Shown here piece after piece: positions 2 through 64,000 of a stretch of 64,000 nucleotides of DNA. The stretch comes from Carpediemonas membranifera BICM (taxonomy: Eukaryota > Protista > Fornicata). The translations under genes were made by a program, and so were the position numbers. How positions within the stretch are numbered: position 1 is the first letter of the stretch; each line of letters begins with the position of its first letter. The DNA is taken from positions 602,829-666,828 of the forward strand of contig JAHDYR010000005.1 in NCBI GenBank assembly GCA_019828565.1. The letters are read 5' to 3'. Under the pieces are notes generated by a model, which was not told the origin of the DNA, did not search any database, and saw only the letters and a list, made by a program, of their open reading frames with translations.

Positions 2-328
2 AGGTTCGGCCTCGAAGATGAGGCCAGATTCGTATACAAGACCATGAATAGGATCGAGAACGGCGCAAAGATGAAGGAGATCGGGAACATTCTCTTTGCA
101 AGAATCCAGTACCTTCTAATCAAGGACGTGTACACTGACGCTACTGCAGAGCGGTTCGAGAACTATTGCAAGGCGAAGGGCGTGCCTGATCGCGACGAGG
201 TCCTGGAACTGGCGGCCCGCGCCAAGTCTAAGGGCGATAAGCGCGACGCTAATTTTCGCCGCGGTGGCCGCGCTCAGGACCGAGGTCGCACTCAGACAGG
301 ATCCTCCGGCAAGAGAGCCCACACCTAA
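2..328 (+). CDS. C-terminal part of the gag-like ORF1 of the YR retrotransposon
   Basis: Frame is open from the window start to TAA at 328, has a basic RG-rich C-terminus and lies directly upstream of the RT ORF. Confidence 0.65.
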   Translation, partial: RFGLEDEARFVYKTMNRIENGAKMKEIGNILFARIQYLLIKDVYTDATAERFENYCKAKGVPDRDEVLELAARAKSKGDKRDANFRRGGRAQDRGRTQTGSSGKRAHT

Positions 329-3014: not shown

Positions 3015-3170
3015 CCACCCCCTCCATTAAACATCCGCGTTCGAGGGGGAACGGCCGAGGCGAGACGGACTCGCCGGCCTGGATTCATCATTAATTCTTA
3101 ACTCTGGTCGAGGCGAGATAGACTCGCCGGCCCAAAGCTTTAGTCCCACAGGGACGTCTTGCGGGATTGT

Positions 3171-3464
3171 CCCATTTTGGTTGGATTTAAGAGGAGGGCT
3201 CTCTGTTATAGAGCCACACTTTGTGGATCCTGTCACAGGACCATCACTGGCACCTGCGCGCGCCGATCAATGTGCACTTTAGGTCACACTTCGAAACGCA
3301 TCGGCAGGTGTCGGAGCCGTTTCGGACCTGACCGGATCGCGAGACGAGGATTTACCCGGGTCTGTCATAAGAGCTCGGGGAAGCCACCCGAAGTAAATAC
3401 TCGCCCCCCCATTTTGGTTGGATTTAAGAGGAGGGCTCTCTGTTATAGAGCCACACTTTGTGGA
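3171..3464 (+). repeat. Split direct repeat terminus: B1 (3171-3227), A (3228-3407), B2 (3408-3464)
   Basis: Exact 57-bp direct repeat around a 180-bp segment. A+B recurs at 11346-11585. Confidence 0.9.
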
Positions 3465-3539
3465 CCGCCATATTGGCCTGTGGACGGCGCTTGGCGCCGG
3501 GGGTAGCTTGATGAGGCAGTCAACCATGTGTGAGAAAAA

Positions 3540-3612
3540 TGGTCCACGTGGGGCTCGAACCCACGACCTTTGGCTTATCAGACCAACGATCTACCGACTG
3601 ATCTAGCAGACC
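3540..3612 (-). tRNA. tRNA-Ile, anticodon GAU
   Basis: Minus strand reads GGTCTGC TA GATC-AGTCGGTA-GATC G TTGGT-CTGATAA-GCCAA AGGTC GTGGG-TTCGAGC-CCCAC GTGGACC A. This is a full cloverleaf followed directly by TTTTT (3535-3539, Pol III terminator). Confidence 0.93.
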
Positions 3613-3985
3613 AATATGCTCACGCAGGTTGTCATGCAGCCATATGAGGTCCGGACTATGCCACGAACCCGTACGTGGCTCCAGGCGGGTCTATGACTCA
3701 TTCCAGCTCACTACAACCGTTATGTGCTGCGGTGCTCCCTGGGGCAGATCTGAGTTCATCGATACTGCTTCGGAATCCCGGAAGAATGGAACAAATAGAC
3801 ATCCGTTTGCTTAGTTCTTTCTCCGGGTGGATCAAGTTGGGGTATAGATCAGGATGAAGGTTGGCTAGAGGTGTCTTAGGACATAGAGCCCCGCGCTCGT
3901 TACCCAGCCTGATTGCACCACCGATCTCAGCCTACTTGTCTAATTCATTGCCGGCATCTGTTTGTGACATTTACATTGCTATCCA

Positions 3986-11071: not shown

Positions 11072-12403
11072 CTGATCGAGGGATGCAGATGAGACGTCCT
11101 TGCGCAGGATTGCGTCCGAGTCGCCACGAGTGAGTTGCGTGGCGGGGACAGTAACAACGCGCCCTAGACCAAGCCGATCGACGTCCCATGCCGTTTCTGA
11201 GAGGTGGAATGCTCGCGCGAGTGACAGCGACCTCGAACGCCTGCCCAGCGTGCAAAACCATGACACGCCCGCACGCCGATAAACAGCCTTACTCCCGCAC
11301 ATTCCACACGCAAACAGAATCACTCGGTGCCGACGCATGCCCAGCTCCTGTCACAGGACCATCACTGGCACCTGCGCGCGCCGATCAATGTGCACTTTAG
11401 GTCACACTTCGAAACGCATCGGCAGGTGTCGGAGCCGTTTCGGACCTGACCGGATCGCGAGACGAGGATTTACCCGGGTCTGTCATAAGAGCTCGGGGAA
11501 GCCACCCGAAGTAAATACTCGCCCCCCCCCCATTTTGGTTGGACTTAAGAGGAGGGCTCTCTGTTATAGAGCCACACTTTGTGGACCGCACGCCGCGCCA
11601 CAGGACGGCAAAAGCTCTCGTCGCCTCGCGCTCAGCACTGCCGTCCCAGTTGCCACCGCCCTCGGGGCCTGCTGGCTGCTGTGTTCCCACCCTCGCCCGA
11701 TCCAGCCCTCACCATCGACCTGGGGCCGCCGATTCCTCGCGCGGTACCATGCCGAAGGGCTGCTCAACTGGGACAGTGCCTTCCACACGCTCAACTTCGT
11801 TCGCTGCGGCCACGATTGCTCGTTGACAGCGTATAGCCGGCCAGATGCTATGCCGGCTGGCGCGGTGGGCGGAGGTGTGCGCGGCGCGGAGACACGCGGG
11901 GGCAGCATTATCGCACAGCCAGGCGTCGAAGGGTGCGGCAGGAGGCGGGCGGGGCCGGCAGACCGCCTGCTGCGCGGCTGCACCCGCCGCTGTGGCGTGG
12001 CCTTTCCTGGCAAAACGCCGATCGTGCGCATGAGAAGGCAGGACGCGGCGGAAGGCTGGCACTGCACCAATAGACGTTGACTGCTCGCGTGCAGCGGCCA
12101 TCTAACGGGGCACTCGCTGTATCCTGCTCAGCGCCTTCACGAACGCCTCTGCGAACGCGCCCTGACACGACAGAACTGCCCGCAGCCGGAATAACCGACA
12201 GAAAATGCTTTTGCTCAGACTATACACGCTCATGAGGGTTGCACGTACCGTGAACCGCGTCCACGCGCTCCCCGGCAAGCTTCGTCGCCGCCGATGAGGC
12301 TGGCACACGACCTCAACAGTAAACAGCGCTTTGCGATGGCTCATGTGTGCTCTATGCCGCTTTCTGGTGGCCACAGCAGCAGAAATGCGGCGCAAGTGGG
12401 TCG
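11072..12403 (-). repeat. 1.09-kb repeat, copy 2 (inverted), interrupted by a 240-bp insertion
   Basis: Reverse complement of 5867-6959, with the extra segment 11346-11585. Confidence 0.9.
11346..11585 (+). mobile_element. Solo A-B terminal-repeat remnant of the YR retrotransposon
   Basis: Matches 3228-3464 apart from one substitution and a longer C-run. Comparison with the empty site in repeat copy 1 shows a clean insertion at cccagc|ccgcac with no TSD. Confidence 0.9.
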
Positions 12404-39613: not shown

Positions 39614-41576
39614 GGGTGTGTCCGGTGCAGATAAACCTGTACCGAGTAAACGCGACTGAGGCTTTCATCATGTCATCGAGGCCCACGAGCGCTTCGCAGC
39701 AGCGGTGGCCTTCTGGGCAACGCAAGCTGGGCGTGGCTCCTGGCCCAGCTGGCATGGAACTGCTCGCGCATCTGGCGTGTGCATTCGTGCTTCTCGCAGC
39801 GTTTGGCTGGTGCGAGCTGGTGCGCTCATGCTCGAAGCCTGCAGTCTTCTGGGCGGTGTCAGCAATAAACCAGCCTCTTGCATGTCGATGGCGAGCATCG
39901 GTGCGATCTTGTCCCGCGCTTTGGCGAATTCTGCAAAGGTAATTAATTAACTATACAGCAAGTGAACATTTCGACTCGACCTTCATATCTCGCCGAATAT
40001 TTAGTGGATATCAGATGTAATTCCAGATTCTTCTTACTTACCCCCGACTACCCCCCGGAGTCATTTGTCAGACCTGGGCTATCTCTATTCGTCGTAAAGT
40101 TCTGAGTAGCCGTTTTGGGGGGTCTGCCCGACCTCCTTGGGCGACTCACGCGACGAGGAGAGTACGCAGAGCCACGCAAATACACCACGATATGTCCCTA
40201 TCCTTCAACATATCAATTCCGAGCTAACTTTTTATAATTCTTAAATCTCCGTTATTTATGACAGTCGGTAAGAGTCATACTCCGGGGTATACCCGACCAG
40301 ACGACACAGAGAAGACTAGCGCAAGCCGGCTCATACACGCATGCACCAACCTATGTGGGCTTGATGGCGGGGGTTGATGGCGAAAATTAATTAACGACGG
40401 GTTGGGTGTGGGTGTCGGGAAGCTCATGGTCGGCGGCGCAGAACTCGGGACTGGGCCATGCGTTCTCTTAGCAACTGGCCACGCTTCTTAGTGGCATAGG
40501 GTGCGGTCGAGGCAGCTACTAAATTTTCGCTAAATACAAGATTTTTTGACACCAAAAAAAACCCTCTCAAACGAATGATGGAAAGAATGTGTAGGTATAG
40601 AACGACGTAGTTTTAGATGTAGATGAAGGTTTGCTATTTCGTTTTTCGATCCGAGTTATGGCCATCGAGTAATCGATAGTGCAATTCTGAAAAATGACGA
40701 CTTTATCTGAAATGAACGTCATGATCACGAAATGCTACGTTATGATGCTGGAACGCGTTATGGTGTTGTACTATGCTTGGTCAGATGATGCATTGTGAGT
40801 TCTGCATGGGAAGCCATAAAGTGCGATGACGAAGTGAGACGACGGTGAGTATTTATGCTGCTTTGAAGGTGAGTGACTGGTTGTGTGTGGCTGGGAGGTC
40901 CGCGGGGGGTCGCAGGGGGGCAGAGAGAGTGACGGAGGCGTAGAGAGGTGTAGCGTAGCGGAGGGCGGGAGGAGCGTAGCGACGAGCGCCCGGAGCGAAG
41001 CGAAGCCGAACGAAGCCGGAGGAGCGACCGGAGCCCCACCGAAATGATAAGGAGGCGCGATTACGTGCGGCGATTAAGGGCGGCGATTGGCTGCGTTCTA
41101 TTGCTCGAGTTTTATGCTCAGTTCGACGGGCTCCGAGTCAGTTTCCTTGCGTGGCGTTGGTTTGGGGGGCTTCGTAGGTTTTAGAACAGTACAGTTTGTA
41201 CATGGCTGTAAGCAGCTTTAGCTTGCTTCACCTAAAAGTGCCTGCCAAATCCCGGATCCGAGCCGGCATTTGGCAATTGACAGAAATCGACGCTCGTGCT
41301 GGGAGTGGCTCCGTTGACGTTTGTGTTGCGCTGTATAGCTTCGTAGTGCGCTCGTGCGCTTGTGAGTCGAGTTCTTGGTGATGTGTCTTAAAGCGCCTGC
41401 CAAAATGATGACTCTGAGTCTGTTGTAACGATGCGCTAATTTATTTCGACACACTGGTGTCGTCTCGGACCAAGTAGGACCAAGACGACACCCATTAAAT
41501 ATATAAATATTAACACGGTATTGCGACACTACCCCTCCCCCCACCGAGAGTATTAAAGCCACTTTGCAAATTGTGT

Positions 41577-41651
41577 CAGAAACCCATCCGATGGTCGAGG
41601 ATCTTCCTTCAGGGTGGAACCGGGTTCGACCCCCGGGGTCACCATATTTTT
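41577..41651 (+). other. Degenerate tRNA-like / Pol III promoter-like sequence inside the 3' non-coding region of Gypsy 1
   Basis: D-arm-like ATCC-GATGGTCGA-GGAT, perfect T-arm CCGGG-TTCGACC-CCCGG, then GGTCACCA and TTTTT. Acceptor and anticodon stems are poor. Confidence 0.5.
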
Positions 41652-42118
41652 CATTGAATGGGTCTTAACCTGCACGACCCAGCGATGAGTCGAAAAGAAG
41701 GAGGAGGCGAAGGACGGAAAAAAAATGGAAAGGGTGTACTCGATATGCCCTTGCAGCGGCCTACCTCCACCTCCTGTCTGAGGTCTGAGTACCTCGTGTG
41801 GTGGCCGAAACACGAGTCGATGGCGAAAGAGTGAACGGGGAAGATGATCGCAACGAGAGCTGAACCCGAGGGAAATGGGGAGATATATAAAGGTGATTGT
41901 ACTGCTGTAGCACTAGGTTCTCACGGGCATTGGTTCCCCCGCAATGCGCAAAAATTTGGAATCAATCGACTATCGATTAACTGGGGAGGTTTGGACCGAA
42001 ATTCCCCGCAAAAGAGGTGTAACAAGCATGTGTAGAGCGATATTGGGCGGAAGAATTACTTCCTGGGGGTAATTGAGCATAATTGGCTGCTCGCCGATTG
42101 AGTTGCCTAATACTGCGG

Positions 42119-45100
42119 CTAGGACCGGGCCCGCCACCTGCGACGAATACGAGCCAGAGTCGGCTCTAGTGCAGGGTTCTCGCGCAAATATTGGTCTAGG
42201 GCCTCCAGCTGGTCGGTGTCTCTGGTAAAACTAATCCAAGAGTCTTCGCTCGGCTCGTAGCCCAGCCAGTGGACTTTGAATTCGACCTTGGACCCCTTGT
42301 TTGAGACCCTGTGCTTGTAGACATTGTCGACCACGTACTCACCGCACTCGGCGGCAAGTCTAGCGATCAGGGCTTGCTCGTCCTCTGGCGTCTCGACAGG
42401 AATGAGTCGCTCATCGCTGACCAGGACCTCTGCCAGCGACACTAAGTCGCGAACCACGTGCGTAGCGGGCGATTCGCCGGCTCGTACAACCTTCATCGGG
42501 CCCCGGAGGCTGGTGAGCAGCTTGGGAGCTCTGCCAACGTAGCGGAGGAGTGCGAAGGAGCCATCCGGGAAGCTCGGAGGTGTGTCGCTGTCCTCGCCGC
42601 TCTTGTTTCGTTCGCTATACCGTTGGAGATGAGCCTTGGCTTGCAGACGGCGGGTATTAAGGGCGTCGCGGAACGCCTTCAGGCAATCGGCTTGGCCCGC
42701 CGACATTTCCTTAAATAGGGCCCACGCCCGCTCGTATTGCGCGACTGAAAACTGCTCGGAGTCGGATCCCGAATTGCCTGTCACTAGGCGTAAGGGGGCT
42801 TGCCCCGTGGCCCGTGTTGGCCGTGTATTAATGATGTACTGCACTAAAGGGAGGAAAGGAACCCAGTCATAGTCCTGGCTGTCAAATAGTAAACCCCGCA
42901 ACAGACGAAGGACTTTTCCATTCGTGCGTTCAACAATTCCGTTGGAGGCTGGGTGATGTGGGGTCGAGTAACGATGCTTGAGGGAGAGGATCCGGTTGAC
43001 TTCAGCGTCCACTTGGTTCCTAAATTCCGGTCCGCCATCAGTTTGAAGTAGCGCTGGTTTCCCAAATAGGGCCCAGACTTCTAGCATTGCTTGGGCTGTC
43101 TCGGCGGCCGTGGTTGATCTCACCGGCTTCAGTACCACGTATTTCGTGAAGACATCTGTGAAGACCAAGACGCCCTTGTACTCACCGCTAGCCCCCAGGG
43201 AGAGAGTGTCGACTTGGACGCATTCAAAGGGCGTGTACCGGTGTGTGCTGTTCTTCGCCGGGGGCGATTCGCTTGTGTGCGCGCAACTTCTGGCATGTCA
43301 AGCACTGCTTGACTACCCGCTTGGCGAGTGCCGAGACGTCGGGCCAAACATGACCCGCCTCCATCGCAAGAGTCGTAAGGCGTACTGCCTTGGGGTGGCC
43401 ATTGGCGCCCTCATGCAGATCTTGAAGTATGCGCAGCTTCTCCTCCTCCGATGGTACGATCTCGGCACTGTTCACAGTCTTAGTCGACGATTCTAGCCGT
43501 GAAGAGCGTCGGCGACCACATTATGCTCGCCTGATATGTGGGCAATGTTGAAATTGAATTCTTGCAAAGCAATCCGCCAGCGCATCACCTTGGGGGATAC
43601 GAGGGAGCGGCGCATGAGGTACACAATATTCCGGTGGTCTGTGTGGATAGTGAGCGAGTTAACCATCTTGAGTAGAGGACTCAAGTCAGGCCGGGTGAGG
43701 GTATGAAGGATTGCGTACAGCTCCTTGTCGTAGGTGGCCCAGCGCCTCTGCGTCGCGTTAAATAATTTCGAAACGAAGGCGACCAGGCGGCGATTCGCGC
43801 CCTCTCCCTGGGTGATTACGGCCCCAAGCCCCCGGTCGCTTGCGTCAGTGTAAACGTCCCATGGCAGGCTGGGATCAGGCTGAGCCAGGACGGTCTCTTG
43901 GGCTACCGCCTCTCTCAGGGCCACGAGGGCTTCCTCTTGGCGTGGTCCCCATACGAATGGCTCACCGGCGTTCCTGATCAGCTCATAGAGGGGGTCCACA
44001 AGGTCCGCCGCGGCTGGGATGAAGTCGATCACGTAATTAAACATCCCTAAGAGTGTTCTGACCCCTGAAACATTGCTCGGAGCCTCTATCGACGTGAGTG
44101 CTTCAATCCGTCGCTTGTCGATGCTCTTCCCCTCGCGGGAAAGGTGGAAGCCCACGATGTCTAACTCCTCCGCGCCGATCACACATTTTGCCGGGCTAAG
44201 CCGAAGGTCATACTTTGTCAGCAACTGGAAGGTTTGCTCTAAGCGTGCTATAAGTTCCTCCTCAGATTGGGCGTAGATTAAGATGTCGTCAATATAGACC
44301 AGCACCCCCCGGTGGAGTACCGGGGCGAGGATGGATTGCATGGTACGCTGGAAATAACTCGGAGCGTTAGTCAGCCCGAATGGGACTCGGTTGAACTCCT
44401 CGTAGTCGTCAGGTGTTACAAACGCCGTCATAGCTCTGTCTTCCTCGTGGAGGGGCATCTGATGGTACCCGGACGTCAAGTCCAAGCTGGCGAAGAATTG
44501 AGCCCCCGCCGCCTCCTGCACGAAGGTTTTCAAGTCGGGAAGGGGAAAATGGTCACGAATGGTGAGAATGTTGAGCTTTGTGTAGTCCACACAGAGGCGT
44601 ATGGCGCCGTTCTTCTTATCCACTACCACGATCGGGGAGGAGAACGGTCCGACGCTGTTCCTGGTGATGCCAAGGTGGCGTAGGCGGGTTACTTCTTCCC
44701 GCACCTGAAGGCGTCGTTCCCCTGATAGTCTCCGGGCTCGTTCCTGGACCAGGGCGTCCGGGTCATTCAATCGGATCCGCATAGGTTCAACCTTGGCTCC
44801 TTGAGCCGGAATGGGGCCGAACAACGTGGAATACTCAGCAAGTAGCGCTCGTACCTCGCTTCGGAGCGTGGCGCTCGCGGATTCGGGAATTTCAACAGCA
44901 CCAACGTCCTCCGAGACGTCTAACTGGTTCAAACTCAGCGGAATGTCGTCCCCGTCCTCCTTGCTCAGATTTTCGGCTACGAGCTGGAGGAATAAGGAAT
45001 CCTTCGTAAGAAGCCCGAGTACACGAAGAATGTCGGTGCCAATAAGGATTTTCTCGCGGTCCCCACTGAGGATTGCGAACTTCGCCTTAAACCGCGTTGG

Positions 45101-46224
45101 GGCTCCCGCCAGCGTGAGGTGTAACCAAGCCTCAGTATAGTGGTTAGTTGTCGAAATGGAACCGTTCGCCATTCTGAAGCGGAGGGTCGGGCCGGTCACT
45201 GTCTGTAGGCCAAGGGCCTCTGCTGACGCAGCGGAGATGATAGATTTTGGTGCTCCAGTGTCAATAATAAAGGAATACTCTTGGTCGTTTATACGACCAG
45301 ACACTTTGAGTGGCTCATCGGGGTCCGTGTCCAGGAGATTAGCCTCGATTGGCTCCTTCTTCTTCGGGTTGGACCGGAGGCCGCCTCCTTCTTGGCGAGA
45401 GCGCATTGGGGCCCCATTGGGGCACTGATTATCCCAATGCCATCCGCCGCACTTGCCACAGGCACGATGGGGAGGCTTCAAAGCTGGGTTGACGTCGTTC
45501 GGCTTGAGAGTGGAAGACTTCTCCGGGGCCCCTGAGGCAACTGCGCCCGGGACCGGGAGGCGAGGCGGTTGGCCTCCTGCGGCCGTTCCTTTCTTTCGGG
45601 TGGAGGACTTTCCGGCCTGGTAGTGACCAAAGCGAATGGCCTTAGCCCGAGCGTCGTCATCTTCTTGAGCGAGGGCAATGCTCAGCTCGTATGCATCGGC
45701 AAGTGACTTCCTCTTAGGATGCTCCTTGAGTTCAAAGTCCAGGACCTTGCGGAAAGTGGATGGGCGGATCCCCTGAAGGAAGATCTTACGCGCGTTCTTC
45801 TCAAAGGGGGAAATGTCTTCTTCGTCCTCTTCTTGTTCCTCTTCGTCCTCGTCCGAGTCGGACTCTTCGATGTCTTCGGCCTTAGAGAAAACTGCTGAGA
45901 ACGCGCTGACGTACGCGCGAATGGAGGTGATTCTTTTTCAGATACCTGGCAGGTGACGGCCTCGAGCTCTTTGACAAGGGACAATTTGTCCACCGGAGCA
46001 AGGAACTTGCTGACGTATTCGTCAATCTTGTCGTCATTTGCCTTCGCCAGGTCTACGTTGAGAGTGTCCTCGATGATGTCCTGCAGGTCATTGGGGAGGA
46101 GGACAGCCAGCTTGGCGGCGGGATACAACGCCTTGATTCGGGCGGCATCCCTCTTAAATGAGCGCCAGGTTTCGCTAGTCAATGTCTCAACGCTCAGAGT
46201 CGGCAGAGAAATATTACCGAACAT
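42119..46224 (-). pseudogene. gag-pol of Gypsy 1, broken by three frameshifts (about 45935, 43502 and 43262)
   Basis: CCHC (CGKCGGWHWDNQC), protease IDTGA, RT YIDD, RNase H TDAS, integrase HHCC/DDE and chromodomain (EYVVDNV...FKVHWLGY...DSW). All three breaks fall in homopolymer runs. Confidence 0.88.
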
Positions 46225-47673
46225 GTAGCCACTAGTGAATTCACTGTTGTAACGATGCGCTAATTTATTTCGACACACTGGTGTCGTCTCGGACCAAGTA
46301 GGACCAAGACGACACCCATTAAATATATAAATATTAACACGGTATTGCGACAAGTCCGCATTTTTGCAACGACGAAACTCGCTGTAGTGACGCAGTTGGT
46401 GTTTATCTAGTACTTCTGAGCTTCGTAGCGCGCTCGTGCGCTTGCGAGTCGAGTTCTGGTGATGTGTCTTAAAGCGCCTGCCAAAATGATGACTCTGAGT
46501 CCGCATTTTTGCAACGACGAAACTCGCTGTAGTGACGCAGTTGGTGTTTATCTAGTACTTCTGAGCTTCGTAGCGCGCTCGTGCGCTTGCGAGTCGAGTT
46601 CTTGGTGATGTGTCTTAAAGCGCCTGCCAAGAAAGAAAGAAATTTAACGTATCCTGTACACCTGTGTAAATCAGGGAATTACCAGTTTGCACCACCCCAT
46701 GTCCCCGGGAACGCCTTAGCGTGTTGACTTCCCTTCGTGAGCGAGCCTGATACTACGTTGGGGGCGTTAGCACCATCACCGTCAGGGTCCAGCTGGTAAG
46801 GCTGGGTAGTCCCTTGCATGTTGACCTATCAACTGGCTGGCCCGATACCCCCAAAGTCGGGATAACCCAGGTCTTACTCTTGGGGGTGTGGTTTGGAAGA
46901 GAAAGAGTTTACGAGTAAAAAGAGGTTTGGACCCTCCCAGGGATATTGGTAGATATTAATACTGACTACACTTCCCCCCCATGGCCAAGCAGTCGCGCGG
47001 CCATCACCACAACCAACATCTGGTATTACGTGGGGCTAGAGCCACCAATCGAACTTGGGATTACGCTCGCTCATGCCGAACCACTATTGGAATTATCGAC
47101 GGGATAACGACAACCAACTTCTGGGATTACGTCTTATTGCAACCTCCAGGTGAGGTATTATGCGTAGTAAGGTGTGACCGAAAGATTCGAGGATGATATC
47201 AAAAAGATTCGGAAAAGATCTATGCAGCGCTGCTAATTAAGATATGGGTTCAGGAGCTCCTGTATAAGTATAAAAAGGACGTACCACAGCCCCGCCCCCT
47301 CGCGGGCACTCTGGGGCTCGCGCTCGACTCGGGAATTCTGGCCCCGAGCATTTTTAGGCATTTCGCCATCGCTCATACAGAAAGTTCTGGTACGTTGGGC
47401 TGATCCGCCCCATTCTTACACAGTGCCCGAAAAAGGGGTTTTCGAGCCCCAATTCGGCTTCGTTGGCGAGTTCTGACTCTTTTTGTTCTGCGCTGTACCG
47501 AAAGTTAACCAACATCATAAGCACTGCTCCACGGACGGTAGAAGTCTCGTGGACTGTGTTTGAGATATAAATATTGTGAATAGTCCGTCATGGGGATCAC
47601 TATGGGCACTTCCATTCGTCATTTGGGAAAAGTGCAGGATATGTCGCTTTTTCCTGAGGAAAAGCGGCCAAAC

Positions 47674-48761
47674 ATGGCGGATACGCGTGCGCTCGACCAA
47701 ATTCGTGAGCTTTCGATGGAGTTAACTGATGACGATTATCGCAAGGTGCTCGAAAATGCCCTTGCGACGATTGCTCGGACGCAACGCTATAAGGCCCGCA
47801 CGATGAGCGCCCTGCAGAAGAGGGCCATCCGCAAGAGCGGCGGGAATGCCTCCCAGATGCCCATGATGCGGTTTGTGCGCCTCTATTCTTCTTACCTAGG
47901 ATCTTCACCGTGCCGGCAACTTCCGCTCGGGAGCTCTGCCGTGTGCCGGTGGGGGGTGTGATGGAGGGGTGCTTCACGAAGCAGGCAGACCAGCTCGCCG
48001 ATGTGGTTCGACGGTGCTTGGCTGGCTACGTTAACTTCGTTGAGGTGCCCCTCGAGGGGATCTTCGATCACCTCTCCACCGGCACGCTGTGGAGCAAGGA
48101 CGCAGGCGGCTTGCTCGATCTGTCAGCCGGCCTGCTGGTCCAGCTCCAGCGAGAGCATCGTGCGCTCCGCTTCCTGCGGGAGGCGTCTCGCAGCCGTGCC
48201 GAAACCGACTCCGGCATAGTCCGCGACGCCGTTGACGCCGGCGTTTTCGATCTCAAGGGCAACGGCTCAAACAGGTACGTCACCCCGGAGACCCTGTTCT
48301 CGCTCTCCCGCGCTCTCGGCTGCGGCCAGAGCCTGGCCCGCCGCACCCTGTACCGGGTCGCCGTCTTGGCCCTCGCCCCAGACTACTACCGCTTGTTCCT
48401 CCACGGGGAGCGTAGCGAGAACGTCTCAGTCACCGCCACTCACTGGGCCGCCCTGGTCGCTAACCTCCGCGCCATGGACGAGCTTCCGTCCCTGCCGGAG
48501 CGGCTCGGTCTGGCCATGCAGGTCTCTGACCCTGAGCGCGAGTACGAGGTCCTTGACGTGCTGGGTCACGAGATCCTGACGGCTGGATCCGACCGCCGAC
48601 TCATTCTTCACGTTCAGTACGCGGGCTACACTGCCCCTACCTGCACTGGTCTGGACGAGACCCTCGCTGCCGTCAGCGTGGCTCGCGAGTATCTGATCGA
48701 CTTTGAGCTCGAGGACTGGATCAAGGGCCCTGACGACGAGTCCGATGACGACTACCAATAA
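47674..48761 (+). CDS. Antisense accessory gene inside Gypsy 2 (about 352 aa), with a 29-nt intron at 47871-47899 and a chromodomain-like C-terminus
   Basis: Removing GTTTGT...CTTACCTAG joins ...QMPMMR to IFTVPATS... in frame. C-terminus is EYEVLDVLGH...LHVQYAGY...AREYL plus an acidic tail. The start could be an upstream in-frame ATG (47590, 47602 or 47641). Confidence 0.75.
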
Positions 48762-48780
48762 ATCTTGATTGAGAATCCGT

Positions 48781-51700
48781 TTACTGCCTGGAGTGCGCAG
48801 CACGGTGTAGTTCTCTCTGCTCAAGAAAGTCCTCAAACTTGTCACAGCCATCGACATTCTCGAATGGCTCCCACGAAGCTTCGTCCGGCTCATAGCCCAG
48901 CCACTCAACCAAGTATTCGCGATTCTCGACCGGACCGGAGTCGGGCCGGGACTTCACAATCTTGCTCGGTATATACTCGGCCGCAACAGTGTTAGCCAAG
49001 CGAGTAACTTGCTCCACGGACATGTCGCCGTGATCGAACGGGAGGACCCGGGAAGCGTCGACCCTGAACTGCTTCAGAGATTCAAGGTCACGCACAGTAT
49101 AGGCAACAACCTTGTTGTACTCCTGGTGCACCGACACTAGTGCCATTGGGCCACGCAGGCCGGCGGCGAATTTGTCGGGTGGTCTGTCGGGGTAAGCCAC
49201 CAGGACGTACGGAGTCGAAACCGTGGCACGGGCGTCCGGCCTGTACTGCTGTAGGAGCCGCTTGCTCTTAATGCGCTCGGCAGCCATGAGCCGGTACGCC
49301 TTGGCCTCGGACAGCCAGTCCTCTTGCTGGTCAACGATATACGTCTCACCCGGCGCGATAACGGTAATGTCCTTTGGCACTCGCATCTCGGTGCCATACA
49401 GGATCTCGGCTGGGGAGAGTCGAGTAGGGACTCGAGGGGTCGAGTTAACAAGGTATTGGGCAATCGGTAAGCTGTGGACCCAATCATTGGATCTAAACTG
49501 GTAACGACGTGCTGTCAGGATGGACTTAACCGACACATTCGCTCGCTCTACTAACCCATTCGACTGGGGATGATGAGCCGTCGTCTTTCTCGTTGTAAAC
49601 CCGAGTCGGGCACTCAGGTCGTTAAAGACTGCGTTGACGAACTGGGATCCTCCATCCGTCTGCAGTACCTTCGGTACGCCGTATCGGAGGACCCAGTTAT
49701 TGACAAACGCCCTGGACGTCTCGACCGCTCGGGTAGTCTGGAGCGGGACAAGCTCAGTCCAACGTGAGCACATGTCTATTACAACGAGGATATACTTATA
49801 GGTCGTGCCGTCGACCGTGCACGAGGTAGCGGACATAGTGTCCATGGCCACTCGGTCGAAGGGGTGCTCGACCGCGGTGTGCAAACCCGCATCGGAAGAG
49901 GCCGGGGGCTTACGCCTTAACTGGCATATTGGGCACTTGGCGATATAGTCGTCCACGTCCTTCTGGCGGACACGTACGCCCCAGTCTCGAAGAAGGTTCT
50001 TGGTCGCCCAGGCGGACAAGTGAGCCCCGGCGAAGTGATGCGCCTTCTGCAGCCTGTCCGCGACTTGGGTATCGAGGGTGTTAGCGAACACGCGAGAAAG
50101 GCCATCTGCTGCCCCGTTGTCAACACCCGGAACGTGACGTATGGTGAAATCGAGGTCAGCTAGTTGGTCGTACCATCTACGGACCTTGGGGTTGATGGAC
50201 TTGGCCATGAACAGCAGGTTGCGGTGATCAGTACGGATGGTAAAGTGCGTCCACGAGAGGAATTTCCGCCAACGCTGGACGGCCAGGATGATTGCGTAGG
50301 CTTCCTGCTCTGTGGTACTCCACCTAGTCTGGACCGCGGAGAATGCGTGGGACATGAAAGCGATCGGCTGCCCGTCCTGTAGTAATACGGCGCCGCATCC
50401 CACGTCTGAGGCATCGGTCATGAGGACATGTGTCGCGTCCGTCTTGAAGTGAACGAGGGAGACCCGCTTAAGGAGCTCGGCGATAACGTCGCCCAGGGCC
50501 GCTTGCTGACCCGGCCCACCGGGTTCGGCCTTGCCAGCCGACACCTGCAACAGAGGATGAGCTCGGGACGCGAAGTTGGGCACGAAGTCACGGAAATAAT
50601 TGAGGAAACCGACGAGTGCCTGTGCGGACCGCTTGCTGGTCGGTAGTTTCAGCTTCTTAATGTCGTCGATGCGGTCTTCGGCAATCCTCACGGTGTCTCC
50701 GGACACGAGTCGACCCAGGAACTCGACCTCAGCCGCGGCGAAGACGCACTTATCGCGACCTAGGTGTAGGTCATACTCTTGGCAACGTTTCAGGACGTCC
50801 CATAGGTTCCTTATGTAGGAAGGCTCGTCCCGACCCATGACAATAATGTCATCGATGTAAATAAGGCACTTCCCTGCCGAGATCAGGTCGGAGAAAGCCT
50901 GCTCCATGGCCCACTGGAAATGAGAACCAGCGTTACGCAGACCAAAGGGCATAGTCGTGTACTCAAACCGTCCAAGGGGAGTCCCGAAGGCGGTCAGAGG
51001 ACGAGAACGGTCCGTCAGTGCCACCTGATGGTAGCCGGCCTTGCAGTCGAGCGTAGCAAAGATGGTATTACCCCTGAGCTTAGCTAGACAATCCTCTATG
51101 ATCGGGATAGGGTAGTTGAACGGGGGAGTCTTCGCGTTGACCAAACGGAAGTCGATAACGAACCGGGTACGGTCCTTCCCCTTTGGGACCAAGAATGCCG
51201 GTGAGGAGTAAGCCGATGCTGATGGCTGGATGAAGCCATGTCGGGACAGGTCGTCAAGGTGTTCCTGGAGAAGTGTCTTCTTCTCCGGCGGCATGAAGAA
51301 CTCGCGGCTAAAGACGGGTTCATCATCAGACAAGACTAGATCGTAAGGGATGAGCTTACTCGGACGCCCTACTCTGTCCTCGAACAGGCCGACAAACCGC
51401 GCGAGCAGTCTGTCCTGAAGGGAAGACGACTTGTCAGACAAGGTGAATAGGCTCAACTTCTGGGGAGTAATGACCGTTGAGACGTCTTCAGCCTGCTCGG
51501 CGTCATTGGCGTCAGACTCCTCGCAGTCGTCAATCTGAGGAAGGATCCCCAGGGTGACCATATCAGGGTACCCAATGATTAGATCGTACTCTGAGGGTAG
51601 GAGGTACGCACGAGTAGTAAAGGTGCACCCACGGGGGACCAGAGCTGATTTGGCAAAGGTTACTTCGGTGGAAATAGTCTGGTCGACTGTGATGACTCCA

Positions 51701-52821
51701 GCCGGTGTCGTCACCTCGACCGGGTCACAATGCAGGATCTTTTCGCCGGACCTCTCGGCCACTTGCGGCGATATGAAGGTTGCTGACGCGCCACAGTCGA
51801 ACAACATCGACTCTGCGCTGGTCCTGTATATGGATCCTGACACAATCGGAAGAGCCTGCGCTCTGCGTTTGCTAGACGCCGCGAAACAAGACAAATAAGA
51901 ATAGTTCTGGACCTTTATACGGTCACAGAACTCTCTCTTGTGGCCCTCGCGCCCGCACTTCTCACACTTGGACTTGGGCTTCCGGCACTCGGGGCTGAAA
52001 TGGCCCTTGCCCCCGCAGTTGTAACAGGTTGGGGTCGTGCTGGTAGGGCGAGCCCGATCGCGGGACCGCTTGTCCGGGCGGTGATGGTCATGCGGGCGGT
52101 CACGACGGTCGTAGGGGCGGTCTCGGCGGTCATCTCGGCGGTCACGACGGTCGCGCTGGTTACGGCTCTGGCCGCGTTGCGGATGGGCGCCTGGCACGGG
52201 CGCTGTCGGACGGCGCGACTGATCGGAGCGGATCGCCTCGGTGAACGGAGCAAGGTACTCAGCCGACTCGGCTACGTCGCGTGCCGTCTTCATGGTGTAT
52301 TGCTGGGTCTCCGCCAGTGAGCAACCCTCAGTCTGCTCCTTCAGTCTGTAGTAGAGGGATTGGCCCTTCACAGCAAAGGCCCGCAAGTAGGCTTCACGAA
52401 TGGTGTCATCCTCGTCCATGTTAAGGCACTCCAACAAGATGTTGAACTGCGAGTTGAGCTTCGACACCTCGAGCGGCGTGAACGCCGCGATGCGCAGCCT
52501 GATAAGGTTCAGGCATTGTTCCTTTCTGGTGGGGCGCAAGGCAGCGGCGAGTCGCTGCATGATGATCTTCTCTCTGAGCTTGCGTGATGAAGTGGAAGGT
52601 TCGTCGTCATGTTGGTCACCCTGAGGAAGCGGAACCTCCTCTAGGGTCTCTAAGCCTAGCACTTGTGATGCATAGGACTGGATCTCCGGGCTTATAAGCT
52701 TGCGGAGCTTCGCCTTACCTCCTCTAGCCTTAAAGTCACGCAGTGACGTCGTAAAAGCTACGAAAGCGCTGAATGTTGCCTCTTTCAGGAGCGGCGCTTG
52801 TTTTTTCTGTTCTCTACCCAT
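48781..52821 (-). CDS. Single gag-pol polyprotein of Gypsy 2
   Basis: Two CCHC knuckles, protease FDCGA, RT LDCKAGYHQ/MPFGL/YIDD, RNase H TDAS, integrase HHCC and DDE, C-terminal chromodomain (EYLVEWLGY...SWEP). Confidence 0.96.
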   Translation of the reverse strand: MGREQKKQAPLLKEATFSAFVAFTTSLRDFKARGGKAKLRKLISPEIQSYASQVLGLETLEEVPLPQGDQHDDEPSTSSRKLREKIIMQRLAAALRPTRKEQCLNLIRLRIAAFTPLEVSKLNSQFNILLECLNMDEDDTIREAYLRAFAVKGQSLYYRLKEQTEGCSLAETQQYTMKTARDVAESAEYLAPFTEAIRSDQSRRPTAPVPGAHPQRGQSRNQRDRRDRRDDRRDRPYDRRDRPHDHHRPDKRSRDRARPTSTTPTCYNCGGKGHFSPECRKPKSKCEKCGREGHKREFCDRIKVQNYSYLSCFAASSKRRAQALPIVSGSIYRTSAESMLFDCGASATFISPQVAERSGEKILHCDPVEVTTPAGVITVDQTISTEVTFAKSALVPRGCTFTTRAYLLPSEYDLIIGYPDMVTLGILPQIDDCEESDANDAEQAEDVSTVITPQKLSLFTLSDKSSSLQDRLLARFVGLFEDRVGRPSKLIPYDLVLSDDEPVFSREFFMPPEKKTLLQEHLDDLSRHGFIQPSASAYSSPAFLVPKGKDRTRFVIDFRLVNAKTPPFNYPIPIIEDCLAKLRGNTIFATLDCKAGYHQVALTDRSRPLTAFGTPLGRFEYTTMPFGLRNAGSHFQWAMEQAFSDLISAGKCLIYIDDIIVMGRDEPSYIRNLWDVLKRCQEYDLHLGRDKCVFAAAEVEFLGRLVSGDTVRIAEDRIDDIKKLKLPTSKRSAQALVGFLNYFRDFVPNFASRAHPLLQVSAGKAEPGGPGQQAALGDVIAELLKRVSLVHFKTDATHVLMTDASDVGCGAVLLQDGQPIAFMSHAFSAVQTRWSTTEQEAYAIILAVQRWRKFLSWTHFTIRTDHRNLLFMAKSINPKVRRWYDQLADLDFTIRHVPGVDNGAADGLSRVFANTLDTQVADRLQKAHHFAGAHLSAWATKNLLRDWGVRVRQKDVDDYIAKCPICQLRRKPPASSDAGLHTAVEHPFDRVAMDTMSATSCTVDGTTYKYILVVIDMCSRWTELVPLQTTRAVETSRAFVNNWVLRYGVPKVLQTDGGSQFVNAVFNDLSARLGFTTRKTTAHHPQSNGLVERANVSVKSILTARRYQFRSNDWVHSLPIAQYLVNSTPRVPTRLSPAEILYGTEMRVPKDITVIAPGETYIVDQQEDWLSEAKAYRLMAAERIKSKRLLQQYRPDARATVSTPYVLVAYPDRPPDKFAAGLRGPMALVSVHQEYNKVVAYTVRDLESLKQFRVDASRVLPFDHGDMSVEQVTRLANTVAAEYIPSKIVKSRPDSGPVENREYLVEWLGYEPDEASWEPFENVDGCDKFEDFLEQRELHRAAHSRQ

Positions 52822-53686
52822 AGGTAAGTACTAGTACTGTGGTTTGGAAGAGAAAGAGTTTACGAGTAAAAAGAGGTTTGGACCCTCCCAGGGATATTGG
52901 TAGATATTAATACTGACTACAGGGGTCCTTCGGGCCCCCGTTCTGCCTGGCACCCGCAAGGCCTTGCCCTGCACACCCGCCACCGGGGCCTTCTGCTCGG
53001 TTTCCCCCTACAGGGCTCCTCTCAGGGATATGTTCTCCATACCATTCGACCCAGTTTGCAATTTTTCAGGCACCCGCCGAAGCGGTTTCGGGCTTGGCGT
53101 TTGCCGTACCACGCAATTGGGCCAGTTATGAAACCCACCGATCATCGCTGGGTAGCTATATGATTCACGGCTGCGTTCGGGCTCTTCCACACTTTCCGTT
53201 CCGGCATGGATCCCCTCCTCAAGGATTTGTTCCCTATAGGGCTTCTTCCTAGCTTCCGGCTGGTTCCAAGTTTTTGGGTGCCGGGCCGTTCGGCGCAGCT
53301 CTGATTTGGTCCAGGTGCCGCCCAGGTGGTATTGTTGCCTTATGGTTACCCTCCTGTTTGGCTGCTGCGCCCCGATACCTCGCACGTACGTGTATACATG
53401 TGCATACGTGCCCCGCCCTATGGCTCTGGGCTATTTCTTATACGTGTGAAGAGTGTGCCGGTTCTGCCGGCTGAATGTTGTCTACGTTCCCAGTATGGGT
53501 GAGCGTTTGTGTGTTAGCGAGATTAGTGTTCGGGGTTGAGTCCCCCTTCCGCGGCTGGGTGCTACCGGGATACGTGGGGCTTGCGTCCCCCGCTGATCCC
53601 AGGAGCGCTCCGCTTCGGTTGAGGCGGGGGGTTGGATCCCAGTTTGACCCTGGTCCCAGAGGTCATAGGATTCTGGGATGGTGTAC

Positions 53687-56600
53687 TTACCCGTCTTTCC
53701 GGAGGTTCAGAAGGGCACGTCTGCCGTTCTGCAGTCCCTCTCTGACGGTATGGTCCTCGCTGCGGAGGAGCCAGAGCATTTCCAGGATTGCCCTTGAGTT
53801 GTACCACTCCGCCTCCTGCCCTTGCCTTAGGGCGTGGTACTGTGTGCGTAGATGCGCCTCTGCCAGGATGTCATTCCATCCTTCTGGGCGTTCTACCGCC
53901 TTGCATTGGCAGATGATGTGGCTTTGTGTTCCCAGGGGCTGGTTGTATGCCCATTCTGAGAGGATTTTGGTGGTTTCCGCCGCGGTTCTGGTGACAGTGT
54001 ACAGGCGAGTAATGGTGTCACCTTCTGAGTCCAGGGTACATAGGGGGCAACACCGCTTGATCCTGCTCAGGAGGGCCTGGGGCTGGCCGATCGCGCTCCC
54101 AAGTATGGCTCTGCTTCTGCCACTGTTGCTGGGGGAGGGGAGTGTGTTGGATGCAGTCATGATTACTCTCTTGACTTCCCGTCTGGTTATCATCTCACCC
54201 TTGATCATTCCTCCGGGAGGGGGCGCAGCCATGAGGCTGATGAATGGATGGGTGGACCTCCAGGCACACATGGAATGGCTGGCAGTCAAAAGGATAGTCA
54301 ACTACAGGGACCAGGATATACCAGTCAGAAACAGAGAATGGGGGCGGGGCACGGTTATGTGGGAAGCTAGGGAGAGAGTGCAGCATCTACTGGAGGGCAC
54401 CAGAGAGGGAGCCCCTAAACCAGCGCTACTGGATTATGGCATGGAAACGATCAGGAGGGGGTGGATGAAGCGGTGCAAAAGCCGTACGGCACTAGGACTA
54501 ATGGAAATCATGGGGACAAGGAAATTAAGCAAGTGTCTGCAAGGTAAGCCTACGGTAGACCGAAAGGCTGGGAAGGGGCAAAGCAGGGCGGAATGGAAGA
54601 GAATTGTATCCATTGCAGCCAATGTCAGCCCATCCCCATCGTCGGCAGAGAGAGGGGAGGGCCCTATGAGAGCCATCACAGAGCTGGCCCAAGGCGCTGA
54701 CCTGAAGAGAGAAATTAGCAGACTATGCCCCCTATGCTCGGAGGAGTCGGAGGTGAGCCTGTTCTACAGGATCATTAGGGAAAAGCCAGGACCAGCAAGG
54801 AAGCAGGAAATGATCAGGGGAGTGGGCAGAGGGCCAGAGGCTAGGATCGGCAGCGCACATAATCTGTGAATGCCCGGCAGTAGACAGGGGAGAAGCTTGG
54901 ACAAAGCTGTGGACAGCAGCGAAGCACAAAACTAAGGACTTGGAAGTAAGGCAGGGCCCCCAGGGCGAATGGTACCAGGAAAGACCCATCCTAGAATTAC
55001 AGCAACTAATAATATGGGGCTCGGAGGACATTTGGGAAGGCCTCACGGCAGGACTACGGGAACTGGCAAAGGTTTACAACAGCTTCAAGGTGGAATAGAA
55101 GCATGTCATGAACCCCTGACTCCAGGACCGGGAAGGGATGGACAAGGAATCAGCCATGGACCACCCTCGCTGGGTGCTAAGCTCCTGGGATCAGTGAGGA
55201 AAGGCCCCACGTATCCCGGTAGCCAGGAACCAAAGCAAGGGAAGGAACGACTGCAAGGAAATAACAGGAAGGACAGACCAGAAATAAGAAAGAAAGGACA
55301 TGCAACAAGGACAGAGCAAGGATAAGGTCAAGGAAATCCATATTCATATGGTTGCACCACTCGTTGGGACCCCAAGGAAACTGCAGGGACTGGCCACGGG
55401 GGTCGGAGGGGCACAGGTGCCCCTGCCGCCCTGTTAACGACATGGGAAACCAAGGACATGTAGTGCAAGCGAAATGTTGTAAGGGGTAACAGGGACAACC
55501 AGGCCTAGTGCCTGGGGCTGCCGCTGACCCACGCCACCTAACCGGGGTAGACAGCATGGACTTAGTCACTTTCCCCGCCTTCGGGTAGGCTTCTTAACAG
55601 AGTCGAGGGGGCATGGAATTGGGGAACCGGACAGACGAGAGGGTGCCGTGGCTGAACGGCTCTACAAGGACTGCAGGGAAGCAAGGAGTGTCATAGTCAA
55701 GGTCCTGCAGGACGATCCTGCCTGTCAATGCCCCGAGGACAGACCCCCAGGCTCCCCGGATAGTTGCCGGACTTTCAGGGAGACAGGAAAGCATATTTGC
55801 ACGGAGATGGCCGCAGGGCCTCTGGGGCGATTGGAATCGGCTTTCCGCGGAGACAGTAGCACCGAAAGCCCAAGGCAAACGCTGCTGACCAGTTTGCCAC
55901 GGGAAATAGGCAGTACCCCGGGGCACTCAGCTCCAAGACAACGGGAAACAAGCTCAGTCCGGGGTCAGAATCCAAGCACCATAAATTTCTTTCTTTCTTT
56001 CACCCTTGATCATTCCTGGTTTCTTGGGTCTCTTCCCTTGCTGCATGCTGAGGATGACTTCCGGGGCTAGTACTGTTGCCACCCCTTTGGCCGTTCGGCT
56101 CCCGGTGTGCAGTAGTTCTTCTGCTGTGAGGGTCCAGCCTCCCCTCTTTGCTCTTTCCCTGGCGGGCATCTCCTCCTGTGTGCCCTGGAGGACGCTCCGT
56201 CGCCATTGGTAGAGGCGATGTAAGACCGATCCTCTCTCCGCTGTCGCCCAGTCCAGATTCCCTAGGGGGGTCGGACGGTCCGGGTCGTGCGCAGACTCAT
56301 AGAGCCTCACCGCTCTCTGCCCCATATCTGCCTCCCAGCACATCCATCCCATTAGTACACGGGCGGCTCCTCCTCCCCCTGGTCCTGTGCCTGCCATTAG
56401 GCCGCGCCAGTTGTTCCAGATGGCTCTTCCCCTGGCGCTTGGCCCCAGATCTCGATCCCGAACTCGATCTTGGGCCAGAGGAAGGTTCTGAGGATGGATT
56501 CCGAGGTGGCGGCCGGGGTGGATCCTTTGGTCCACCCTGCTCTCCTTGCCAGGGCTAGGTATTTCCGGGATTGTGACGTCTTCATTTTGATGCATGCTGC

Positions 56601-61393: not shown

Positions 61394-64000
61394 AGAAAGA
61401 AATTTATGGTGCTTGGATTCTGACCCCGGACTGAGCTTGTTTCCCGTTGTCTTGGAGCTGAGTGCCCCGGGGTACTGCCTATTTCCCGTGGCAAACTGGT
61501 CAGCAGCGTTTGCCTTGGGCTTTCGGTGCTACTGTCTCCGCGGAAAGCCGATTCCAATCGCCCCAGAGGCCCTGCGGCCATCTCCGTGCAAATATGCTTT
61601 CCTGTCTCCCTGAAAGTCCGGCAACTATCCGGGGAGCCTGGGGGTCTGTCCTCGGGGCATTGACAGGCAGGATCGTCCTGCAGGACCTTGACTATGACAC
61701 TCCTTGCTTCCCTGCAGTCCTTGTAGAGCCGTTCAGCCACGGCACCCTCTCGTCTGTCCGGTTCCCCAATTCCATGCCCCCTCGACTCTGTTAGGAAGCC
61801 TACCCGAAGGCGGGGAAAGTGACTAAGTCCATGCTGTCTACCCCGGTTAGGTGGCGTGGGTCAGGGCATGGGTGGTGTTACCCCAGGCACTAGGCCTGGT
61901 TGTCCTGTTACCCCTTACAACATTTCGCTTGCACTACATGTCCTTGGTTTCCCATGTCGTTAACAAGGGCGGCAGGGGCACCTGTGCCCCTCCGACCCCC
62001 GTGGCCAGTCCCTGCAGTTTCCTTGGGGTCCCAACGAGTGGTGCAACCATATGAATATGGATTTCCTTGACCTTATCCTTGCTCTGTCCTTGTTGCATGT
62101 CCTTTCTTTCTTATTTCTGGTCTGTCCTTCCTGTTCTTTCCTTGCAGTCGTTCCTTCCCTTGCTTTGGTTCCTGGCTACCGGGATACGTGGGGCCTTTCC
62201 TCACTGATCCCAGGAGCTTAGCACCAGCGAGGGTGGTCCATAGCTGATTCCTTGTCCATCCCTTCCCGGTCCTGGAGTCAGGGGTTCATGACATGCTTCT
62301 ATTCCACCTTGAAGCTGTTGTAAACCTTTGCCAGTTCCCGTAGTCCTGCCGTGAGGCCTTCCCAAATGTCCTCCGAGCCCCATATTATTAGTTGCTGTAA
62401 TTCTAGGATGGGTCTTTCCTGGTACCATTCGCCCTGGGGGCCCTGCCTTACTTCCAAGTCCTTAGTTTTGTGCTTCGCTGCTGTCCACAGCTTTGTCCAA
62501 GCTTCTCCCCTGTCTACTGCCGGGCATTCACAGATTATGTGCGCTGCCGATCCTAGCCTCTGGCCCTCTGCCCACTCCCTGATCATTTCCTGCTTCCTTG
62601 CTGGTCCTGGCTTTTCCCTAATGATCCTGTAGAACAGGCTCACCTCCGACTCCTCCGAGCATAGGGGGCATAGTCTGCTAATTTCTCTCTTCAGGTCAGC
62701 GCCTTGGGCCAGCTCTGTGATGGCTCTCATAGGGCCCTCCCCTCTCTCTGCCGACGATGGGGATGGGCTGACATTGGCTGCAATGGATACAATTCTCTTC
62801 CATTCCGCCCTGCTTTGCCCCTTCCCAGCCTTTCGGTCTACCGTAGGCTTACCTTGCAGACACTTGCTTAATTTCCTTGTCCCCATGATTTCCATTAGTC
62901 CTAGTGCCGTACGGCTTTTGCACCGCTTCATCCACCCCCTCCTGATCGTTTCCATGCCATAATCCAGTAGCGCTGGTTTAGGGGCTCCCTCTCTGGTGCC
63001 CTCCAGTAGATGCTGCACTCTCTCCCTAGCTTCCCACATAACCGTGCCCCGCCCCCATTCTCTGTTTCTGACTGGTATATCCTGGTCCCTGTAGTTGACT
63101 ATCCTTTTGACTGCCAGCCATTCCATGTGTGCCTGGAGGTCCACCCATCCATTCATCAGCCTCATGGCTGCGCCCCCTCCGGTCCTGTTCCTGCCATGAT
63201 TCTCTGCCAGTCATTCCAGATCCTTCTACCTCCCGGTGCGTTCCCCCACACCTCGACTCCGAAGAGGATCCTGGGCCATATATATATTTCCAGTAGTAGC
63301 CTGCTCGCTAGTGCTGGCATGTTTGCCCTGGTCCACCCTGCCCATCTCACCAGTCTCTTGTACCTTTCGCTCTGCTCCTGTTTCCGCCTTATGCAGGCCG
63401 ACATAGGGTCCTTCCCACTTGCGATCCATAATCCCAGGTATCTCGCCTCCTTCTCTGGCAGTAGTGTTACCCCCTCGATCCTGACTAGGGCTGTTCTGTC
63501 CACGCTAATCATTACATTCTTCTGGGCGTTCACCCTCATTTCATGCTCTCTGATTATGTCCACCATTATGTTGGCGACCATCTGGCTATGCTCCGGCTTG
63601 CTCCCTGTGACCGCAGTGTCATCCACAAACATGGTAAGTGCTGCCGGTAGTCGGTCGCTGAGGGTGGCTCGTGGTCCTTGGCGGTTCTCTGATGTCGTAC
63701 CGTTCTCCCTTGATTTTTCTTTCTGGCCAGGTGGGGCCAGTTAGCCATGAACAGCACAAACAGTGTCGGTGCCAGGACGCGCCCTTGCTTTCCCTGTTGG
63801 TTCACCCGTGCCTTTTGCTCGTTGTCGGGTTTGTTGCGGTTTGCCTGATCCGGTTGACATCACTTTACTTTCGCGGCAGCCGATTCCGTGGGTGCGGCAT
63901 TTCGTTATTGCGGGAGGTTTGATGATTCCTTAACAGCGCCGCCGCCCGCTATGGTCATATCTCCGCCCAGCGCCATCTGTCCCTTCCATTCTTCGTTTAG
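61394..64000 (-). mobile_element. Second LINE family B copy (RT C-terminal part, Cys/His domain, 3' UTR); sequence degrades beyond about 63780
   Basis: LAPTLFVLF, MFVDD, YLGLW and CPLC...HIICEC. The tail TAAATTTCTTTCT ends at 61394. Confidence 0.88.

Follow-up and report, generated by a model that had tools for sequence, protein, structure and literature searches.

The 64,000-nucleotide stretch of the Carpediemonas membranifera BICM genome analyzed here (assembly GCA_019828565.1, contig JAHDYR010000005.1, positions 602,829 to 666,828 of the forward strand; hereafter, the window) contains, at 41421-52921, two adjoining long terminal repeat (LTR) retrotransposons, E1 and E2, both on the minus strand. 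Each carries a perfect 12-bp palindrome, composed of the terminal A of the LTR, a 10-nt core and a T, at the tRNA primer-binding position. Minus-strand priming of LTR elements is a fixed point of biology, the known modes being tRNA priming and the self-priming in cis of Tf1; the palindrome is a real, lineage-wide feature that is neither tRNA-like nor Tf1-like.

The initial annotation of this stretch, made from the letters alone, described both 12-bp palindromes with their coordinates and their register on the last A of the 5' LTR, noted that no TGG lies directly past the 5' LTR in either element, and placed the gag ATG 20 nt (E1) and 16 nt (E2) past the LTR; all of this was reproduced. The two sites are the following.

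46234..46245, minus strand: E1 palindrome AGTGAATTCACT, i.e. LTR-terminal A, core GTGAATTCAC and T; single copy in the element and in the window
52827..52838, minus strand: E2 palindrome AGTACTAGTACT, i.e. LTR-terminal A, core GTACTAGTAC and T; single exact copy

The window as a whole contains 16 perfect palindromes of at least 12 bp, and the A-core-T symmetry follows 9 of its 8,316 CA sites (both strands), with the E1 and E2 sites among the nine. The motif ACTAGT, to which the initial annotation also drew attention, is present in both leaders, but its significance did not hold up: it occurs in 3 of 63 elements, appears incidental and was rejected as a leader motif. An assembly or adaptor artefact was likewise rejected: many unrelated assemblies show the feature, and with different letters.

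Relatives were sought with an alignment of E2 and 12 homologues as the query. The loci fetched comprised 11 from the viral collection, the best 80 of 533 from the metagenome collection (in a scan of 38 of 64 parts) and 18 from the genome collection; the peptide pattern does not match E1, and the sample is one of relatives without the close kin of E1. In a FastTree phylogeny of the reverse transcriptase (RT)-RNase H region, 7 of L012-L109 fell outside the group and 91 loci were kept, including L089 and L107 although these were too short for FastTree (L107 is 99% identical to L060). Junctions were set by curation, and a palindrome was called when it was perfect, at least 10 bp long and started on the terminal A of the LTR or immediately ahead of it. 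By this definition, a perfect palindrome was present at the LTR junction in 71 of the 91 related loci. In four of the 71 (L015, L041, L082 and L083), the LTR seems to end in TA, not CA, and its final A is nevertheless the first base of the palindrome. Another two of the 91 (L069 and L091) have a probable palindrome with a non-CA anchor, and 17 show no junction: in three, the sequence passes from the 3' LTR into the DNA beside the element, and the other 14 stop before the junction or lack a recognizable LTR. Loci L092-L109 are eukaryote-type Gypsy elements in contigs filed under bacterial or archaeal metagenome-assembled genomes, which is probably binning contamination.

In a boundary-independent set, where the LTR end is fixed without the palindrome, either by LTR-copy divergence (E1, E2, L013, L018, L024, L052, L053, L087, L090 and L104) or, for the eleventh member L099, by its sister L100, the palindrome was perfect in 11/11, with no G-U pair or mismatch among 64 pairs. 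Other CA sites in the same sequences were symmetric in 7 of 4,850 cases only. A repeat pair in L083 whose end lacks a palindrome was left out of this set, as it lies inside gag.

Removal of near-copies (RT identity of at least 85%) left 63 non-redundant elements, which carry 37 different cores; the conclusion of the initial annotation that symmetry and register are conserved rather than sequence thus extends from two elements to the sampled group. The core is 8 nt long in 14 of these elements, 10 nt in 41, 12 nt in 4 and 14 nt in 4, and longer palindromes are more A+T-rich (Spearman correlation with GC of −0.42, the relatives not being independent). Among the 41 elements with a 10-nt core, three to four Watson-Crick pair types were observed at every pair position, the central pair included, the outer A:T being invariant, and pairing just outside the palindrome was at chance level (8, 5 and 9 of the 41). 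Symmetry with compensatory changes, which the initial annotation had suggested looking for, was found among the relatives, in their perfect sites and in the covariation of all inner pairs. The central four bases are always self-complementary, with 13 different central tetramers, and, as covarying bases that would be unable to pair in a hairpin, they point to pairing between two molecules. The sister elements L054, L060, L063 and L074 (RT identity 91-97%) have four different cores; between L054 and L060, at 87% DNA identity, all 10 core bases differ, compared with 0 of 20 positions at the LTR end and 1 of 20 downstream. The symmetry was not found to reach further into the LTR (an extra pair in 17/63, near chance), and the dinucleotide before TG mirrors the one after CA in 0 of 23 elements.

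Other primer sources were looked for in the same elements. No TGG was found within +1 to +5 at any of 73 junctions, whereas the outgroup L098 has TGG. For a Tf1-type complement to the LTR, the longest Watson-Crick run was 4 nt in E1 and E2, and the mean run across 60 elements was 5.4, compared to 5.6 in shuffled sequences; runs of at least 10 nt with G-U allowed were present in 2 of 63 palindrome elements vs 9 of 12 control loci (10-11 nt), the Tf1-type controls being labelled by this LTR-complement property and not by named reference. These results agree with the initial annotation on the missing TGG and add that no Tf1-type self-primer accompanies the site. A downstream partner of the kind known as CHSeq2 in GalEa elements was found in 0 of 62 at no more than one mismatch (1.3 expected by chance), the best candidates in E1 and E2 having 4 mismatches. 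ARAGORN identified no tRNA in 60 loci. The comparison with tRNA covered the one host tRNA in the window, with whose T arm the E1 site forms a weak 9-nt run including three G-U pairs, and the E2 site a run of 6 nt.

A tRNA-like stretch lies at 41590-41643 (plus strand), antisense in the 3' untranslated region of E1, with a T arm, ACCA and a T run. It was not called by ARAGORN, Rfam gave one sub-threshold tRNA-like match over 40500-54000, and the stretch is possibly a relic of an RNA polymerase III promoter. An element-encoded primer derived from it was rejected: it pairs with the site over 7 nt only, folds no better than shuffles and has no match in the fetched loci.

An unrooted IQ-TREE phylogeny of RT-RNase H was built from 36 rows (22 of the 73 palindrome elements, 6 Tf1-type elements and 8 others, two of the rows being long). 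All 22 palindrome rows lie on one side of a branch with support 95/88, and the 6 Tf1-type rows, controls labelled by inference, form a group of their own (100/99). A supported branch sets the palindrome elements apart from self-priming Tf1-type and TGG-type elements; in this tree, which was built without named chromovirus references, the group is split from the Tf1-type loci and a plant element. Scans of viral contigs returned Tf1-type elements only, or no match.

We consider it about an even chance that the palindrome is a self-matching primer site, whereby two genomic RNAs would cross-prime without a tRNA. This arrangement is favored because the site is the primer position, the leader of 16-20 nt offers nothing else, and a second copy of the same RNA is the only sure carrier of the complement of every such site. 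Two genomic RNAs would pair antiparallel at the palindrome in the packaged dimer; after a cut in one of them near the palindrome end, the 5' fragment of this RNA would serve as primer for minus-strand DNA, with the partner as template. For a 10-nt core, the duplex would be 11 bp if the cut falls at the core end and 9 bp if it falls 2 nt earlier, with the outer A:T pair as the far end of the RNA-RNA duplex; the predicted dimer gain (cofold) is −11.8 kcal/mol for E1 and −16.8 kcal/mol for E2. As in Tf1, whose primer is reportedly cut by the RNase H of the element, the cut would be made by the RNase H that the element itself encodes. The primer would then be copied into plus-strand strong-stop DNA, such that progeny would receive the site once unchanged and once reverse-complemented, and this copying would keep strict Watson-Crick symmetry while the letters drift, which would account for the block-wise change. 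In the account given for Tf1, the primer is reverse-transcribed into a PBS (primer-binding site) copy at the cDNA 3' end (PMC11042837). In 22 of the 23 elements in which a polypurine tract (PPT) was found, its last two bases before TG are AG, likely a 2-nt end extension, and in the control loci CA is followed by a 2-nt gap; because of these two features, the primer may be cut 2 nt inside the core, with its 3' end 2 nt outside the LTR and not exactly at the U5 boundary, where the initial annotation had placed it. Of the tRNA-independent dimer or self cross-priming put forward in the initial annotation, the symmetry, the register, the lack of TGG and of a Tf1-type primer and the covarying center are observed; the priming itself we infer from sequence, as a directly testable proposal and not as a result.

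Several points weigh against such cross-priming. The same core is kept at 70-74% DNA identity in the pairs L030/L050, L037/L045 and L022/L024, and fast core turnover is seen in one lineage only. The palindrome is imperfect in the frameshifted copy L085 (1/91), and for the 62 relatives that do not belong to the boundary-independent set, the palindrome itself helped in part to locate the junction, so that perfection among them is biased. Predicted duplexes are weak in some elements, down to −6.2 kcal/mol, the tRNA comparison is limited to a single host tRNA, and the model deprives the cut RNA of its own PBS.

Furthermore, much of what is seen would also be expected from a role in dimerization alone. 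In that case, the palindrome would be only a dimerization or packaging signal, with priming by another RNA, a protein or another site, a possibility that we regard as unlikely. Like the site studied here, the retroviral dimerization initiation site (DIS) and the Ty3 DS/PAL6 are short 5' palindromes predicted to join two genomic RNAs, and Ty3 RNA is described as dimerizing via its 5' palindrome (PMC11381356); in E1 and E2, the palindrome caps a predicted U5-leader stem, and such flanking pairing can be traced weakly across the family (mean z −0.55; 8/61 below −2). However, the DIS and Ty3 signals, as described in that source, are of about 6 nt, lie in loops, are additional to a tRNA PBS and are not tied to the LTR end, and the known dimer signals treated in PMC5445492 likewise come in addition to a PBS and are not locked to the last base of the LTR. 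Here, the register is exact and the short leader leaves no other primer site; moreover, RNA pairing alone should presumably tolerate G-U, of which the 64 unbiased pairs contain none. The same strictness would fit pairing at the DNA level, whereby the 3' ends of minus and plus intermediates, or an earlier cDNA, would anneal or prime and genomic RNA would stay uncut; Tf1 cDNA is described as retaining, at the 3' end, a PBS copy in single-stranded form (PMC11042837). We find this quite improbable: it leaves the start of the first minus strand unexplained, and, in the established retroelement scheme, a plus-strand PBS copy requires a copied primer of that sequence.

Snap-back in cis, in which a single RNA cut after the palindrome would self-prime via a stem of 3-4 bp with a 4-nt loop, appears slightly more improbable still. 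Of 61 minimum-energy folds, 36 show the palindrome as such a hairpin within its flanks, but in isolation the hairpin has hardly any stability (0 to −3.7 kcal/mol). Its four loop bases, which would not need to pair, are nonetheless self-complementary in all 13 tetramers, and a template cut in this way would have no PBS left for the second strand transfer. It is very improbable that host tRNA fragments or other small RNAs prime, with symmetry as a secondary feature. Half-tRNA priming is described as common in Copia elements (PMC10886601, PMC6317226), the fungal GalEa elements, as reported, hold essentially one sequence (PMC5445492), and the E1 site has the T-arm pairing described above; against this, E2 has only the 6-nt run with the same tRNA, and the 37 cores are all palindromic, with four that differ among sisters of over 90% RT identity.

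Among known systems, the closest parallel is the Conserved Hairpin Site CHSeq1 of the fungal Ty1/copia family GalEa, which was proposed as a PBS replacement, its mechanism being given as unknown (Donnart et al. 2017, PMC5445492); the initial annotation does not mention this published layout. As in the elements analyzed here, the passages describing CHSeq1 report no tRNA PBS and a palindrome right after the 5' LTR that includes the final A of the LTR and has T at its end, and no U5 complement was found in either group. The two differ in that GalEa is Copia, whereas the E1/E2 group is Gypsy, with integrase after RNase H; in that the GalEa core is described as 8 nt long with two main versions, CTGATCAG and CTAATTAG, compared to 37 cores of 8-14 nt in the Gypsy group (PMC5445492); and in that most GalEa families are reported to have CHSeq2, which the Gypsy group lacks (0/62). 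The CTAATTAG version is found mostly in low-GC GalEa families (PMC5445492 supplementary file 3) and may be a product of repeat-induced point mutation (RIP). Judged by its sequence features, the palindrome group is the equivalent, within Gypsy, of the GalEa site, and its covariation is far stronger. No published report of a palindromic PBS in Gypsy was found in a literature search that left out most subscription journals and Repbase reports.

Tf1, Sushi and Tcn1 are, similarly, described as chromodomain Gypsy elements without a tRNA PBS (PMC4600332, PMC6317226, bioRxiv 10.1101/2022.12.06.519325, PMC11042837). In the accounts given there, the primer comes from element RNA, duplexes flank the PBS and the primer is copied into the cDNA end, which for the E1/E2 group is proposed only; the Tf1 primer is the transcript 5' end, a cis complement of a non-palindromic PBS, whereas the E1/E2 group has no such complement and belongs to a separate RT lineage. 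The dictyostelid Skipper chromoviruses are also protist chromodomain Gypsy elements for which, in the relevant passages, loss of TGG and no LTR complement are reported and novel priming is suggested (PMC5006619). Skipper has a polypyrimidine stretch where the E1/E2 group has the palindrome, and our tree was built without a Skipper sequence.

E1 and E2 are Ty3/Gypsy LTR retrotransposons with a chromodomain, as seen from their TG...CA LTRs, target-site duplications (TSDs), PPTs and the order protease, RT, RNase H, integrase, chromodomain (Pfam). The chromodomain (PF00385) at the integrase C-terminus is above the cut-off in both, the acidic motifs of RNase H are found in both, and Ty3 Gag-Pol/RT is the best solved relative. 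The two RT-RNase H regions are only 33% identical to each other; that of E2 matches a Carpediemonas membranifera protein at 100%. E1 spans 41421-46352, with two 108-bp LTRs without a difference and a 4-bp TSD, AGTC; E2 spans 46887-52921, with two 84-bp LTRs without a difference and a 4-bp TSD, GGGG. E2 has a single open gag-pol frame of 1346 codons, and the E1 frames are interrupted at no fewer than (at least) 3 places, by decay or by assembly error. The remaining features are as follows.

46245..46352, minus strand: E1 5' LTR, 108 bp, TG...CA; TATA-like tract, then a strong predicted hairpin
41421..41528, minus strand: E1 3' LTR, same sequence as the E1 5' LTR
41529..41545, minus strand: E1 PPT; last bases TAG before the 3' LTR
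45682..46224, minus strand: E1 gag start; ATG 20 nt past the LTR; frame shifts into the next open reading frame (ORF)
43493..45937, minus strand: E1 remaining gag, protease, RT, RNase H; frame break at the RNase H end (Pfam, translations)
42119..43297, minus strand: E1 integrase core and chromodomain; separate frame after a further break (Pfam, translations)
41417..41420, plus strand: E1 TSD AGTC; other copy 46353-46356
52838..52921, minus strand: E2 5' LTR, 84 bp, TG...CA
46887..46970, minus strand: E2 3' LTR, same sequence as the E2 5' LTR
46971..46980, minus strand: E2 PPT; last bases AAG before the 3' LTR
48781..52821, minus strand: E2 gag-pol ORF: zinc knuckle, protease, RT, RNase H, integrase, chromodomain; ATG 16 nt past the LTR
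47793..48761, plus strand: E2 antisense ORF, located between pol and the 3' LTR; 322 codons, counted from stop to stop
46883..46886, plus strand: E2 TSD GGGG; other copy 52922-52925

The E2 antisense ORF had no Pfam or Atlas family match and is not common to E1 or the fetched loci; its C-terminal part, which matched nothing in Pfam, Atlas or those loci, looks chromodomain-like by eye. The initial annotation had read the identical LTRs and TSDs as recent transposition. The identity and the TSDs stand, but "recent" is softer than claimed because the LTR clock is weak (zero differences over 84-108 bp are compatible with ~3% divergence) and the E1 frames are broken.

E1 sits within an array of 145-bp tandem repeats (41271-41420 and 46353-46642), and E2 lies 534 bp beyond E1, followed by sequence resembling a non-LTR retroelement; the region is possibly a heterochromatic cluster. 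In the non-LTR retroelement region, ~1.7 kb recurs in inverted orientation (54300-55990 vs 61400-63180, by eye). At the other end of the window, 120-3468 contains RT and tyrosine recombinase ORFs with short split repeats, i.e. a DIRS-type retroelement, which ends ~70 bp from a tRNA-Ile gene with a GAT anticodon (3539-3613, minus strand), an anticodon unusual for tRNA-Ile in a eukaryote. A 240-bp end piece of the DIRS-type element (3228-3468) recurs 8.1 kb away at 11346-11589, with host genes in between.

A primer site defined by symmetry and position only, with no fixed sequence, would need no host RNA and is cleanly testable; E2, with its short LTRs and single open frame, is a compact test substrate. 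Cross-priming would suggest how the unexplained GalEa site might work, and the palindrome gives a simple annotation rule for elements now listed without a PBS. At somewhat less than even chances, these elements could represent a widespread, deeply branched Gypsy lineage with a third priming mode, in which packaged genomes would prime each other and the copying of the primer would re-mirror the site in each cycle. If so, the palindrome would be a freely drifting self-recognition key that stops families from priming each other, reached independently by the fungal GalEa Copia elements.

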